A stretch of DNA of 64,000 nt, taken from Anaerolineales bacterium (GTDB lineage Bacteria > Chloroflexota > Anaerolineae > Anaerolineales > UBA11579). The position numbers and the translations under genes are program-made. This document shows, one piece after another, positions 10,004 through 15,504 of this stretch. Where the stretch lies: contig JAHBVB010000001.1 of the NCBI GenBank assembly GCA_019637805.1, positions 5,262 through 69,261 on the forward strand, written 5' to 3'. The notes under the pieces are model-generated. The model made no database searches and was not told the origin of the DNA. It saw nothing but the letters and a program-made list of their open reading frames with translations. Position 1 is the stretch's first letter. Each line of letters starts with the position of its first letter.

Positions 10004-11662
<1,659 letters not shown>

Positions 11663-11668
11663 AGAGAG

Positions 11669-11917
11669 CTAGCTCGCCCGAGCTTCGATCAAGCCGGCAA
11701 GTTGCTCCAGCGTATCGAAGGTTTCGGCGTTGAGCTCGGTATCATCCAGGCGCACGCCCCAGGTCTGCTCCACAAACAGCGACAAGTCCACCAGCGAGAA
11801 CGAGTCGATCAATCCACCGGAAATTAGCGCTTCCGTGGCGGAGAGCGTTTTGTCCGGACGCTTCAAGATCTCGCCGGTGATGTATGTGTTCAGCTTGCTG
11901 ATGATTTCTGCTTTCAT
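11669..11917 (-). CDS. Acyl/D-alanyl-type carrier protein (phosphopantetheine attachment)
   Basis: 82 aa, acidic. GGLIDSFSLVDL matches the [DG]-S-[FL] phosphopantetheinyl-serine context of ACP/DltC-like carriers. The start overlaps the upstream stop as ATGA (11917-11914). Confidence 0.7.
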   Translation of the reverse strand: MKAEIISKLNTYITGEILKRPDKTLSATEALISGGLIDSFSLVDLSLFVEQTWGVRLDDTELNAETFDTLEQLAGLIEARAS

Positions 11918-13044
11918 TTTTTCTCCAAGTCAAAGAGCTCGGCCAGTACAGTTGCGATCTGCTGGGCCAATTGCTGTGTGCCCGCTGGCGTCAGGTGAAT
12001 GGGCGTATTGGTGAATTGGTCATTGTCCACCGCTTGCCACAGGTCGGCGTAATGCCAACTCTGCCGCTCCGCCTCAGCTTGCAGCCACTGGCGGTATTGG
12101 TCGTAGGCCCAGCGCGGATAAAAGGAATTGTAACGAATATCACTGTTGGCGCCGCGGCTGACAAACATAGGTTCGTTGATCAACAGCACGGGCGTCTCGC
12201 CGGCGCGCTGGATGCCGGCGGCGAGCACATCCAAGGCCAACGCAGTTTCGGGCAGCTCCGGCGGCAGAAATTCGCCATAGCGCTCATCCGCCTCCAGGTC
12301 GATGGCATGGCGTTCCACCTGCTCAGGAATGTGCACATCCACACCGGTGGCCGCCCACAAGACGCCGTAGAACTGCAAGCGCAATAAGTCTGCCAGGTTG
12401 CGCCGCTGGCCCAGCAAGCTGGCGCCCCAGGCATCCTGGCGGACGAAAGCAGGGTCCGCCGGGTCCAACGGCAGGCCATGATTGCGGATCAGTGCTTCGG
12501 CCCGCTGCGGGTTGTGCTGCAGCAGCGGCGAGCTGTCCTGCTTGCTCAGCGGAAAAGCTTCCAACGTCAGCGGCCAAATCAGCAGGTCGGGCTGGTAACG
12601 TATGGCGTAATCCAGAATGAGTAGGTCCTTGCTTAGTGAAATAGTCGGATGGCCAAGGTTGTAAAAGACCGCCCGGCGACCATCGGCCGTCCGCAACCCG
12701 GCGGCGTTGAGTGCCGACGTCAGTGTGTCTTTATTCTCCAGCAAATAGCCCCATACTGAAGAATCGCCGATCAGCAGTACGCGGTACTCGTCGGCGGCCT
12801 TGGGCGTGCCGTGCAGCTGGTGCGAGGCAAACATGGCCTCCAGGCTGTACAGGCTCAGGTTGTAGGCGCGCCCCGGATCATCGCCATAGGGCAGCCGCTC
12901 ACGCCCGGGCAGCAGTCCGTTGTACAAGCTGAGCCCGCCCAAAGCCGGCATGGGGTCAAAGGCTGCGAAGAGCAGGTTGACCAGCACAAACAGCAGCGCG
13001 GCCTTGAGAACAATCCGCACAGGTGAAACCACCGGTGATCTCAT
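11914..13044 (-). CDS. Membrane-anchored SGNH/GDSL-family protein, DltD-like position in the cluster
   Basis: Start taken at ATG 13044 (ATGA overlap with the MBOAT stop; the track ORF extends to 13155). N-terminal TM IVLKAALLFVLVNLLFAAF, block I LLIGDSSVWGY, block V DNDQFTNTPIHLTPAG (D..H). Confidence 0.7.
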   Translation of the reverse strand: MRSPVVSPVRIVLKAALLFVLVNLLFAAFDPMPALGGLSLYNGLLPGRERLPYGDDPGRAYNLSLYSLEAMFASHQLHGTPKAADEYRVLLIGDSSVWGYLLENKDTLTSALNAAGLRTADGRRAVFYNLGHPTISLSKDLLILDYAIRYQPDLLIWPLTLEAFPLSKQDSSPLLQHNPQRAEALIRNHGLPLDPADPAFVRQDAWGASLLGQRRNLADLLRLQFYGVLWAATGVDVHIPEQVERHAIDLEADERYGEFLPPELPETALALDVLAAGIQRAGETPVLLINEPMFVSRGANSDIRYNSFYPRWAYDQYRQWLQAEAERQSWHYADLWQAVDNDQFTNTPIHLTPAGTQQLAQQIATVLAELFDLEKK

Positions 13045-14450
13045 CGGCCCACCCCCACCCCGGCCAACACGCCAAAGACATGCGCCGCATCTGCCGGCTG
13101 CGGCAGGGCAAACCACACCCAACCCAGCGCAACGAAGACCAGGGTGGCCAGCCAACCCAGGCCGCTGGCCAAGCGCGGCTCAAACGGCAGTGGCCGCGCT
13201 TTGGCGAATTGCGCCCACTGGTTGTGGGCGAACAAGCCCAGACCGTGCCACAGGCCCCAGGCCAGGAAGTTCCAGGTGATGCCGTGCCACAGGCCGATCA
13301 GGCCCATGGTGCTCAGCTGGCCCAGCAGCACCACCAGCCAGACCGGCGCGCCGCGGCCGCGCAGCCAGCGCGTGAAGGGATTGAAGAAATAGGCCCGGAA
13401 CCACTGCGCCAGGGTAATGTGCCAACTGTTCCAGAATTGGGTCAGGTTGGGTTTGCGATAAGGCTGGGTGAAGTTCTCCGGCAAGGTCACGCCAAACAGC
13501 TGGCCCAGTCCGATAGCGATGCTGGTGTAACCCGCGAAGTCGAAGAAGATACGCAGGGCATAAGCCAACAACAGCAACCACATCCACAGCGGCTGACTGA
13601 CCTGCCAGGCGTTGACTGGATTGAGTGCAAAGAAGGCCAGCCCGTCAGCCAGGACGAACTTCATCACCAGGCCGCTGAGCAAGCGCTGGCCGGCCGCCAG
13701 CAGCCCGGCACTGTCCAAGACAAAACCAGGCTCCAGCTGGGGCACAAAGCGCTCAACGCGCTCAATCGGGCCAGCGGTGAGTGCCGGGAAAAAGACGATG
13801 TAGGTGATGAAGTCGCGCAGCCCCACTTCCCCCAGGCGGCCGGCCAGCCGGTCACGCAGCACATGGATCAGCCGGAAGGCGATGTAGGAGAAACCCAGCC
13901 AGCCCAGGTCCAGCGTGCTGGCCAGCGCCGGGTCCTGGCCGCCCAGGCCGCGCAGCCAGGCGCTGGCCGCCTGCACCAGCGGCGGCGACTTGAGCACCAC
14001 CAGCAGGCCGATCAAGAGCAGCACGCCGCCGTGCAGCCAGGCGGCCTGGCCGCGGCCCAGGCGGTACGCCAGCACAGCAGCAACGGCCAGGAGGGCCAGG
14101 CCGCCGCCCGCCAGTTCCAACCCCGGCGGGCGGGCCGGGCTGAGAGCGCTGAGCGGCTCGACAACGCGGGAGGCGCTGACCAGCAGGGCCAGGGCCGCCA
14201 AGCCGGCAGCCGCCCAGGCGTCTTGGCGGTTCCAGCGCCGCGGCAGGGTCAGCGCCCAGACCAGCACTGCCAGGCCCAGGCTGGCCAGGGGCAGCAGGTA
14301 GGGCAGATTGCGCACGAAGGAGGCAGGCTGCAGCCAGAAAGCCGCCAGGACGCTGGCGGCAAACAGCAGCCAGGCGCGGTCCAGCCAGCGGTACAGACGG
14401 CTCGCCAGCAGGCCTAAGCCGGCAAAGATCAGGATCTGGGTCAGGGTCAT
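13041..14450 (-). CDS. MBOAT-family membrane-bound O-acyltransferase (DltB/AlgI-like)
   Basis: Polytopic, 469 aa. Conserved FWNSWHITLAQWFRAYFF (catalytic His region) and GLWHGITWNFLAWGLWHG. Confidence 0.85.
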   Translation of the reverse strand: MTLTQILIFAGLGLLASRLYRWLDRAWLLFAASVLAAFWLQPASFVRNLPYLLPLASLGLAVLVWALTLPRRWNRQDAWAAAGLAALALLVSASRVVEPLSALSPARPPGLELAGGGLALLAVAAVLAYRLGRGQAAWLHGGVLLLIGLLVVLKSPPLVQAASAWLRGLGGQDPALASTLDLGWLGFSYIAFRLIHVLRDRLAGRLGEVGLRDFITYIVFFPALTAGPIERVERFVPQLEPGFVLDSAGLLAAGQRLLSGLVMKFVLADGLAFFALNPVNAWQVSQPLWMWLLLLAYALRIFFDFAGYTSIAIGLGQLFGVTLPENFTQPYRKPNLTQFWNSWHITLAQWFRAYFFNPFTRWLRGRGAPVWLVVLLGQLSTMGLIGLWHGITWNFLAWGLWHGLGLFAHNQWAQFAKARPLPFEPRLASGLGWLATLVFVALGWVWFALPQPADAAHVFGVLAGVGVGR

Positions 14451-14451
14451 G

Positions 14452-14571
14452 CTAAAAACCCTGGTAGATCCATAACGGGCTGGCGTCGGCCGTCATGACC
14501 AGCAACGCCATCACGGCCAAACACAATAGGACGGCGTAGAGGTTCTCGCGAGTTAATAGAGACTTAAGCAT
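14452..14571 (-). CDS. DltX-like single-pass micropeptide (39 aa) ending WIYQGF
   Basis: Internal ATG (14571) of the 80-aa track ORF gives MLKSLLTRENLYAVLLCLAVMALLVMTADASPLWIYQGF: one TM helix plus a C-terminal aromatic-I-Y-x-x-F. The TAG stop lies 1 nt before the MBOAT ATG. Confidence 0.55.
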   Translation of the reverse strand: MLKSLLTRENLYAVLLCLAVMALLVMTADASPLWIYQGF

Positions 14572-14581
14572 GGAAAGCGAA

Positions 14582-14587
14582 ATTATA
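14582..14587 (-). promoter_or_regulatory. -10-like TATAAT (minus strand), 10 nt upstream of the micropeptide ATG
   Basis: Plus-strand ATTATA at 14582-14587 is TATAAT on the minus strand. No SD before ATG 14571. Divergent from the mmuM-like gene. Confidence 0.35.
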
Positions 14588-14605
14588 AAGCAGTCAGGCA
14601 AACGG

Positions 14606-14611
14606 TAAAAT
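14606..14611 (+). promoter_or_regulatory. -10-like hexamer TAAAAT, 5 nt upstream of the ATG (leaderless candidate)
   Basis: TAAAAT at 14606-14611, spacer GCGGC, ATG at 14617. No SD. Confidence 0.35.
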
Positions 14612-14616
14612 GCGGC

Positions 14617-15504
14617 ATGAGAACCTTTCGAGAACGACTTATCGATCCACGGCCCATCCTGCTGGATGGGGCCATGGGCACTGAACTGGAACACCGCGGC
14701 ATCAACACGGATACACCGATCTGGTCAGCGATGGCCCTGATCGAGAAACCTGATCTGGTGGAACAAGTCCACCGCGATTATTTGGACGCCGGGGCTGAGG
14801 TGCTGATCACCAACACCTTCCGCACCCACCGCCGCAACCTGGCCAGCATGGGCATGGGCGAGCGGGCCGCCGAACTGACCGCCCTGGCGGTGGCGATCGC
14901 CCAGCAAGCCATCCGCGCCAGCGGGCGCGTGGCCTGGGTGGCCGGCTCCCTGGCCCCGCTGGAGGACAGCTACGTGGCCAACGCCCTGCCGCGCGAAACC
15001 TACCTGGAAGAACACGGCGAAATGGCCGCGCACCTGGCCGCGACCGGCGCCGACCTGCTGCTGGTGGAAACCATCAGTACGATCCGCGAGGCCTCGGCCG
15101 CCGCCGAAGCGGCACGCGCTACCGGGCTGCCTTACGGGGTCAGCTTCATTTGCAAGACGGACGGGCGCATGTTCTCTGGCGAGTCACTGGCCGAGGCAGT
15201 CGCCGCGCTGCAATCCTTCACGCCCGACTTTCTGGGCATCAACTGCACCGCGGCCCCTGAACTGCACCTGGCGCTGGCCGAGCTGCGCAACGCCACCAAT
15301 CTGCCCATCGCGGTGTACGCCAACCCCAGCCACACCGAAGACTACCAGCACTGGGACGAGACCGCCGCGGTTGACCCGCAGGTCTACGCGGGTTATGGGG
15401 AAAGATGGCTGCAAGGCGGCGCCCAACTGCTGGGCGGCTGCTGCGGCACCACGCCGGAACACATCGCCGCATTGCACGACTTGATCGGGGTGGAGGATGC
15501 GTAG
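14617..15504 (+). CDS. Homocysteine S-methyltransferase
   Basis: N-terminal ILLDGAMGTELEHRGI and C-terminal zinc-ligand motif LLGGCCGTTPEHI, both typical of the S-methyltransferase (MmuM/BHMT-like) domain. Confidence 0.85.
   Translation: MRTFRERLIDPRPILLDGAMGTELEHRGINTDTPIWSAMALIEKPDLVEQVHRDYLDAGAEVLITNTFRTHRRNLASMGMGERAAELTALAVAIAQQAIRASGRVAWVAGSLAPLEDSYVANALPRETYLEEHGEMAAHLAATGADLLLVETISTIREASAAAEAARATGLPYGVSFICKTDGRMFSGESLAEAVAALQSFTPDFLGINCTAAPELHLALAELRNATNLPIAVYANPSHTEDYQHWDETAAVDPQVYAGYGERWLQGGAQLLGGCCGTTPEHIAALHDLIGVEDA

Follow-up and report, generated by a model that had tools for sequence, protein, structure and literature searches.

The microprotein considered here, 39 residues long and encoded on the minus strand of an Anaerolineales genome fragment, is the founding example of a large, unnamed protein family of Anaerolineae (Chloroflexota). 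The interpretation that appears to accommodate most of the available facts is that this protein serves a DltB-like MBOAT as an acyl-shuttle arm detached from the enzyme, that is, a relay resembling DltX that would carry a cargo other than D-alanine (D-Ala); we put the probability of this reading at roughly 0.7. The fragment, hereinafter the window, is the whole analyzed stretch of 64,000 nucleotides (nt) from an Anaerolineales bacterium (GCA_019637805.1, contig JAHBVB010000001.1, positions 5,262 to 69,261 of the forward strand). The elements that are central to the argument are the following.

14452-14571, minus strand: microprotein gene, 39 codons plus TAG, product MLKSLLTRENLYAVLLCLAVMALLVMTADASPLWIYQGF, recognized by conservation and codon-level purifying selection
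14455-14472, minus strand: C-terminal hexapeptide W34-I-Y36-Q-G-F39, which matches the published FxYxxF, with Y and F invariant and W, I, Q and G conserved at 90% or more
14488-14541, minus strand: transmembrane helix, residues ~11-28, with a 15-residue Kyte-Doolittle mean of up to 2.9
13041-14450, minus strand: DltB-like MBOAT of 469 amino acids (aa), PF03062 at 5e-25, with H344 and H389 and no C-terminal FxYxxF

The open reading frame (ORF) of the microprotein starts with the ATG at 14571-14569 and terminates with the TAG at 14454-14452, and a single base (14451) separates this stop codon from the ATG of the MBOAT gene (14450), which is the arrangement that had been reported in a preceding examination of the same DNA (hereinafter the sequence-only reading). 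As also noticed there, the ORF list contains the gene only inside an 80-aa ORF with a GTG start (14452-14694), as the tail of that ORF, and the 41 extra codons, which had been described as non-coding in appearance, turn out to overlap the 5' end of the divergent homocysteine S-methyltransferase gene (start 14617). The homologues of the microprotein are most often 39 aa long and begin alike, with M-L-[KR]-x-L-[FL]-[ST]-R-E-N-L, which supports ATG 14571 as the true start codon.

The principal evidence that this ORF is a gene comes from a comparison of 80 loci from species-representative genomes in which the MBOATs are 40-60% identical to that of the window. A small ORF ending in ...SP-x-WIYQGF-stop is found directly 5' of the MBOAT gene in ~67 of the ~75 loci with readable upstream DNA, and is absent upstream of the MBOAT in L015, L021, L040, L072, L074 and L075; in the same region, L007 contains masked bases and L011 a frameshift within the ORF. 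The sequence-only reading had proposed to examine whether the small ORFs upstream of homologous MBOATs keep a terminal [FW]-I-Y-x-x-F, and they do: among the aligned copies, Tyr occupies position -4 in 65 of 65 and Phe position -1 in 65 of 65, the motif always being located at the extreme C-terminus. The family consensus can be written as xxxxLFSRENLxALxLCLxLIALxIxTADxSPxWIYQGF, where N10, Y36 and F39 are invariant and E9, A13, P32, W34, I35, Q37 and G38 are conserved at 90% or more.

The pattern of nucleotide substitution is that of a protein-coding sequence. The highest variation is observed in the third codon positions (entropy of 0.99, 0.50 and 1.50 for positions 1, 2 and 3, respectively) and the median dN/dS of the ORF is ~0.22. 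The invariant Tyr is encoded by TAT in 37 copies and by TAC in 28, the invariant Phe by TTC in 39 and by TTT in 26, all four codons are in use at each of the Pro and Gly positions, and each of TAA, TAG and TGA occurs right after the final Phe. Thus, we have here a real gene that is subject to selection at the protein level, not a chance ORF. The terminal motif at this locus is likewise more than chance: in a six-frame scan of the 64-kb window for [WFYLIVM][IVLF]Y..F-stop, the microprotein ORF is the sole match, and in ~0.85 Mb of related loci a relaxed version of the motif has ~5 matches away from any MBOAT. Scans of the window for Rfam families and tRNAs yielded no matches. At one of the compared loci (L011:5800-5900, on a contig of 3.65 Mb), the microprotein ORF is split between frames, with ...LILTADQSP in one and PQWIYQGF-stop in another, which reflects either an assembly indel or a pseudogene.

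A profile search of a collection of 5.8 billion sequences, with the microprotein family alignment headed by a 43-aa homologue as the query, matched at least 4,647 clusters at E<=0.01. Among the clusters listed, every one with a named source is a 'hypothetical protein' and none carries a Pfam domain, and the best 120 of these at least 4,647 clusters all end in WIYQGF, with a modal length of 39 aa. In an exhaustive HMMER scan of 1.84 billion representatives at 50% identity, 195 were detected at E<=1e-3; among the best 150 of the 195, Tyr is at -4 in 147 and Phe at -1 in 145, the remainder being truncated or read-through calls, and the variants FIYQAF, FIYEGF and FLYEGF found among the representatives are literal FxYxxF motifs. 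The homologues of the partner MBOAT also number in the thousands, and those with a named source are labelled as Anaerolineales, Anaerolineae or Chloroflexi. The exact peptide of the window is recorded from one 4.8-kb Logan contig only, whereas the identical MBOAT is also present on a 1.16-Mb contig; probably, the peptide was not called in this long genome record. The earlier description of the peptide as 'probably unannotated' accordingly holds for the 1.16-Mb contig but not for the databases as a whole, given the Logan record and the homologues that are often annotated as a 'hypothetical protein' of 38-39 aa (e.g., BCY19582.1 of Leptolinea sp. HRD-7). Two loci with unexpected taxonomic labels, L029 (Methanosarcinales archaeon) and L069 (Pleurocapsa sp.), carry the typical Anaerolineae cluster including the WIYQGF peptide; the labels probably reflect binning error rather than lateral transfer.

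What could be the function of this family? The anatomy of the peptide is simple: a basic N-terminus with the conserved R8-E9-N10-L11 (14539-14550) on the predicted cytoplasmic side, followed by a single hydrophobic helix and a short tail that ends in an aromatic residue and I-Y-x-x-F, an organization that the sequence-only reading had outlined and with which both the hydropathy profile and the family motif agree. The net charge of the N-terminus averages +2.5 and is positive in all 66 family sequences, and the charge of the 13-residue C-terminal tail averages -0.8 and is zero or negative in 65 of the 66. When the positive-inside rule is applied to this charge pattern, the N-terminus is predicted to be in and the C-terminus out. 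The Tyr36 codon is 14466-14464; by analogy with the systems discussed below, WIYQGF would be an acyl-shuttle motif and Tyr36 the relay residue. The RENL signature, in which E-N is invariant or nearly so, is located at the predicted cytoplasmic edge of the transmembrane helix. DltX contains nothing equivalent; contacts of the signature with the MBOAT or with the docking site of the carrier protein are conceivable.

In the Dlt system, DltB transfers D-Ala from DltC to the Tyr of DltX, which hands it on to the catalytic Ser of DltD (PMC12148441). The motif of DltX is FXYXXF, with an acyl-Tyr intermediate (PMC12148441); in L. plantarum and B. thuringiensis, it takes the form FIYNEF (PMC13653941, PMC5541007), and the S. 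thermophilus version is FLYFGF (PMC11035591). In the PatA-type MBOATs, the equivalent hexapeptide is fused to the enzyme (PMC12148441), and the Tyr of FXYXXF is the acyl acceptor in DltX and PatA alike (PMC12148441, PMC13653941). This literature is also in line with what the sequence-only reading had stated on the DltX hexapeptide and its acyl-accepting Tyr (PMC12148441, PMC13653941, PMC5541007).

The enzyme encoded next to the microprotein gene fits into this framework. The best NCBIfam model for the MBOAT is TIGR04091 (DltB), at 209 bits and below the cut-off of 375; the only sequence relatives in PDB are the DltB structures 6BUG and 8JEM (~2e-37); and in a Foldseek search with an AlphaFold2 model (pLDDT 84), DltB is again the closest match (~1e-13), ahead of PORCN and HHAT. 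The residues H344 and H389, both invariant in 15 homologues, align with H289 and H336 of DltB, the residues that are active within the extracellular funnel (PMC11035591). A C-terminal Y..F of its own is found neither in the window MBOAT nor in any of 120 MBOAT homologues, so that the count of shuttle motifs in the system is one, with the MBOAT lacking the motif and the adjoining microprotein possessing it. A 575-aa MBOAT homologue (P0006) that was considered as a candidate fusion of the MBOAT with the peptide had to be rejected, being an MBOAT fused to the start of an SGNH protein. A fused terminus of a different kind is seen at L007:1817-4232, where an MBOAT ending in ...SDFIYFQF is followed by a 338-aa ORF and lies 2.8 kb upstream of a split-type MBOAT; therefore, both architectures coexist in one Anaerolineales genome.

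The other genes of the cluster encode proteins that are compatible with an acyl relay.

11914-13044, minus strand: membrane-anchored SGNH/GDSL-like protein, 376 aa, with an N-terminal transmembrane helix, G93-D94-S95 and H350
11669-11917, minus strand: acyl carrier protein (ACP), 82 aa, with a DSF serine site; PP-binding at 2.3e-4, above the cut-off
10004-11662, plus strand: adenylase similar to fatty acyl-AMP ligases (FAAL) and long-chain acyl ligases, 552 aa; AMP-binding at 3.6e-58

The match of the SGNH protein to Lipase_GDSL_2 is weak (1.3e-5, below the cut-off), and a search of PDB with a profile of the SGNH family retrieved neither DltD nor any other SGNH structure; the GDS and His are conserved in 62 orthologues, and the gene is the next one after the MBOAT in 66 of the 80 loci. 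The ACP is matched by the ACP models of NCBIfam and only weakly by the DltC models (E ~1e-3). For the adenylase, the best NCBIfam models are the long-chain acyl ligase PRK07768 (385 bits) and the fatty acyl-AMP ligase PRK09192 (348 bits), both below the cut-off, compared to 141 bits for the amino-acid adenylation model, and no DltA model is among the top 25 NCBIfam matches.

The genes are tightly packed, with an ATGA overlap of the MBOAT stop and the SGNH start, a similar overlap of the SGNH stop and the ACP ATG, and, in 43 of 60 loci, an MBOAT start located -4 to +1 nt from the stop of the peptide gene, an arrangement in which the peptide, MBOAT, SGNH and ACP genes are translationally coupled. 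In 44 loci, the genes are lined up on one strand in the order peptide, MBOAT, SGNH, usually a second SGNH lipoprotein, ACP and FAAL, whereas in the window the adenylase gene is convergent with that of the ACP. Approximately 50 of the 80 loci contain an upstream gene for a lipoprotein-like product of ~175 aa and the gene for the second SGNH lipoprotein between the first SGNH gene and the ACP gene (both are found, for example, at L010:5341-5868 and L010:8605-9633), and tblastn detected no match to either of these in the window. With the two genes missing and the FAAL gene inverted, the window cluster (11669-14571) is therefore a reduced, rearranged version. The link between the peptide and the putative donor module is statistically visible: the ACP or FAAL gene is linked in 38 of 50 peptide-bearing loci with enough downstream DNA versus none of 5 peptide-less loci (Fisher p=0.0018, uncorrected for phylogeny). 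A distinct variation on the gene order is seen at L078:4258-11465, where one microprotein (ending in SWFLYEGF) is accompanied by two tandem MBOAT-SGNH pairs, followed by the ACP and the FAAL; the single shuttle peptide may serve both enzyme pairs or the first pair only.

Given that every sequence-level element of the Dlt scheme is present in the cluster, the same relay appears most likely. Under this scenario, the FAAL-like enzyme would adenylate a carboxylic acid and load it onto the neighboring ACP; because the donor module pairs a FAAL-like adenylase with an ACP, the cargo is probably a fatty acid or another acid other than D-Ala. The acyl-ACP would then dock at the cytoplasmic face of the MBOAT, whose H389 and H344 would transfer the acyl group to the phenol of Tyr36 in the extracytoplasmic WIYQGF-COOH tail; the tail, now bearing the acyl group, would swing to the membrane-anchored SGNH protein and its Ser95 site, and this protein would deliver the acyl group to an acceptor in the envelope. 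What we infer from the parallel with the known systems is the acyl-Tyr intermediate, the nature of the acyl group and the acceptor. A bolder and more tentative extension, to which we would give somewhat less than even odds, is that the WIYQGF microprotein is the hallmark of an undescribed carrier-protein-dependent MBOAT pathway, widespread in Anaerolineae, in which a repurposed acyl-tyrosine relay of the Dlt type exports a FAAL-activated, probably fatty, acyl group and lipidates an extracytoplasmic polymer or protein of the envelope.

How close, then, is the peptide to DltX itself? DltX belongs to the dltXABCD pathway of Firmicutes and is recorded in NCBIfam as 'teichoic acid D-Ala incorporation-associated protein DltX'. 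Each of the two is a single-pass microprotein of ~40-50 aa whose basic N-terminus faces the inside and whose short tail is extracytoplasmic (a topology that is predicted in the present case), each has a free C-terminus of the form aromatic-[ILV]-Y-x-x-F with an invariant Tyr, and each is encoded in an operon that also specifies a motif-less DltB-type MBOAT, an SGNH protein, an adenylating enzyme and a carrier protein. There are also differences. The homology to the Anaerolineae peptide is not detectable beyond the last 6-7 residues; the first position of the motif is mostly Trp rather than Phe, and R-E-N-L precedes the transmembrane helix; the gene is located directly 5' of the MBOAT gene and not of dltA; in place of DltA there is a FAAL-like adenylase, and the SGNH protein is unrelated in sequence to DltD; finally, the hosts of DltX are Bacillota, whereas here the host is a member of Chloroflexota (Anaerolineae).

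The database searches draw the same boundary. The window peptide has no match to the Pfam DltX family (PF12459) at E<=1 and none in NCBIfam; a search of PDB with a profile of the peptide family retrieved no DltX chain, the only match being a spurious one to the transmembrane segment of FtsL (E=4.5); and when B. thuringiensis DltX was the seed of a protein search, the matches were 12 close relatives from Bacillus and nothing else. When compared to the dlt operon of L. oris, the MBOAT is 35% identical to DltB (1e-47) and the ACP 28% identical to DltC (1.5e-4), and the 24% identity of the adenylase to DltA (1e-13) amounts to generic similarity within the ANL superfamily; this plasmid-borne operon contains no dltX ORF upstream of dltA. 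Judging from these comparisons, the peptide appears to be a functional analogue of DltX, either a very distant homologue or a product of convergence, and not a member of the DltX family. The label 'DltX-like' that had been attached to it is thus apt with respect to the architecture, motif and genomic context but does not extend to family membership, for which both the Pfam model and the profile-profile comparison fail.

Two other types of systems invite comparison. The fused hexapeptide of the PatA/AlgI-type enzymes is also FxYxxF-COOH, following a transmembrane helix and located outside the cytoplasm, with acyl transfer to an SGNH partner (PMC12148441); here, by contrast, the motif resides on a separate gene product, and the predicted donor, in view of the linked ACP and adenylase genes, is acyl-ACP rather than acyl-CoA. 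The dlt-type loci of the Gram-negative Dickeya and Pectobacterium, like the present one, are found outside Firmicutes and include a small DltX-like ORF that is reported to share the topology but not the sequence of Firmicutes DltX (PMC5541007), but are described as D-alanylation systems with dltA and by this description are set apart from the cluster analyzed here (PMC5541007).

The most obvious alternative to the relay with a non-D-Ala cargo is that the microprotein is a highly diverged but true DltX orthologue, encoded in a chloroflexotal dlt operon that D-alanylates a teichoic-acid-like polymer. The shared architecture, the C-terminal Tyr motif and the neighboring genes for a DltB-like MBOAT and a carrier protein are all compatible with this possibility, as are the FLYFGF of S. 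thermophilus DltX, which also has Gly at -2 (PMC11035591), and the reports of Gram-negative DltX proteins that have the topology in common but no sequence similarity (PMC5541007). Nevertheless, such orthology seems improbable, considering that PF12459 and hhalign reveal no homology, that the adenylase scores 348-385 bits as a FAAL or long-chain acyl ligase against 141 for amino-acid adenylation, with DltA outside the top 25 and the 24% identity to DltA being generic, and that the similarity to the remaining Dlt proteins fades as well (none for SGNH to DltD, E ~1e-3 for the ACP with DltC models). Alternatively, the peptide could be a structural or assembly subunit that joins the MBOAT and SGNH proteins and never bears an acyl group. 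Transmembrane contacts of DltX itself likewise connect DltB with DltD (PMC12148441, PMC13653941), and the conserved RENL on the cytoplasmic side, together with the transmembrane helix, suggests protein-protein contacts. However, conservation peaks in the extracytoplasmic hexapeptide, with the invariant Tyr three residues from the free carboxyl as in the catalytic motif, and the MBOAT has no acceptor motif of its own, so that a purely structural role is unlikely, too.

Two further explanations dispense with a function of the peptide in the membrane. The stop codon of the microprotein abuts or overlaps the MBOAT start at most loci, as would be the case for a cis-acting upstream ORF that encodes an arrest or coupling peptide and controls MBOAT translation, and arrest peptides also conserve C-terminal residues. 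However, the peptide possesses a full hydrophobic transmembrane helix and a charge pattern that obeys the positive-inside rule; furthermore, a 376-aa gene intervenes between the peptide and the MBOAT in L035, gaps of 30-100 nt separate them in L013, L030 and L063, and the motif matches the known catalytic motif of this very enzyme class, all of which makes this explanation very unlikely. As for the possibility that the ORF arose by chance or is a conserved element without coding function, the ORF is indeed very short, lacks a Shine-Dalgarno sequence and does not appear separately in the ORF list, but this possibility is effectively refuted by the third-position variation, the dN/dS of ~0.22, the mixing of synonymous codons and the use of all three stops, along with the thousands of homologues that share a common length and a common end.

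Several observations weigh against the acyl-shuttle interpretation itself. None of 44 family members passes PF12459, the best E-value being 0.14, whereas the B. thuringiensis DltX control yields 2e-21 and 75.7 bits, and hhalign of the family against a DltX alignment (records from Bacillus, Listeria, Niallia and S. aureus and the sequences of PMC5541007) covers only the last 7 residues, in register but with a probability of 2%. The similarity is limited to the motif and the architecture and could therefore be convergent. In the comparison with the L. oris operon, no similarity in sequence to DltD was detected for the SGNH protein; its single-sequence structural model has a pLDDT of 33.7, and the transferase role attributed to it is based on the GDS/His motifs and synteny. 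All model matches of the adenylase are below the curated cut-offs, and a substrate cannot be assigned from them. Finally, five paralogous MBOAT loci (L015, L021, L072, L074 and L075, with the MBOAT at ~6000), most of which include an SGNH gene, possess neither the peptide nor a fused motif: a microprotein upstream, a C-terminal Y..F and, within 6 kb, an ACP or FAAL gene are all missing. Either the peptide acts in trans at such loci or the motif is not universally needed. L015 derives from the same metagenome-assembled genome as the peptide-bearing L037, and for this reason action in trans might be envisaged.

The principle of the relay is already known, the acyl-tyrosine shuttle being a recently established route by which acyl groups cross the bacterial membrane; what has not been described in this context is the microprotein family, together with its partners and its phylum. 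So far, a free-standing shuttle microprotein has been described essentially for D-alanylation only, in the form of DltX. The present family would be a second, sequence-unrelated candidate, whose partners are an ACP and a FAAL-like enzyme and whose phylum is one with poorly known envelope chemistry. The 2025 JBC paper on PatA/PatB states that MBOAT/SGNH pathways other than Dlt function without a DltX-like microprotein and without a carrier protein (PMC12148441); the lipidation pathway proposed above, if true, contradicts this statement. Our literature searches, which did not cover Schultz et al. 2023, found no DltX-like microprotein outside Dlt and no FAAL-ACP-MBOAT-SGNH system. In practical terms, ..P-x-W-I-Y-Q-G-F-stop can serve as an annotation marker for thousands of 'hypothetical' 39-aa genes. 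The hypothesis also predicts a new, testable acylation of the envelope, and the family provides a natural comparison for delineating what is essential in a shuttle, with the Tyr, the final Phe and the free carboxyl terminus as the features in question.

The expression of the microprotein gene deserves a brief comment. One additional element lies immediately upstream.

14582-14609, minus strand: promoter-like site TTTACC-16 nt-TATAAT, with a 10/12 match to the sigma-70 consensus

The -10 hexamer TATAAT (14587-14582) ends 10 nt before the microprotein ATG, and no purine-rich Shine-Dalgarno sequence was found between the two, both features being present exactly as the sequence-only reading had described them. 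Two promoter-like sites were found in the region against 0.6 expected. Based on this one match to the promoter consensus, we infer that the microprotein may be translated from a near-leaderless transcript; such a start cannot be conserved, because most of the relatives have a gene on the same strand directly upstream. Only 45 nt (14572-14616) separate the microprotein ATG from the ATG of the divergent homocysteine S-methyltransferase gene (14617), and the two divergent promoters must therefore overlap each other or the adjacent coding sequence.

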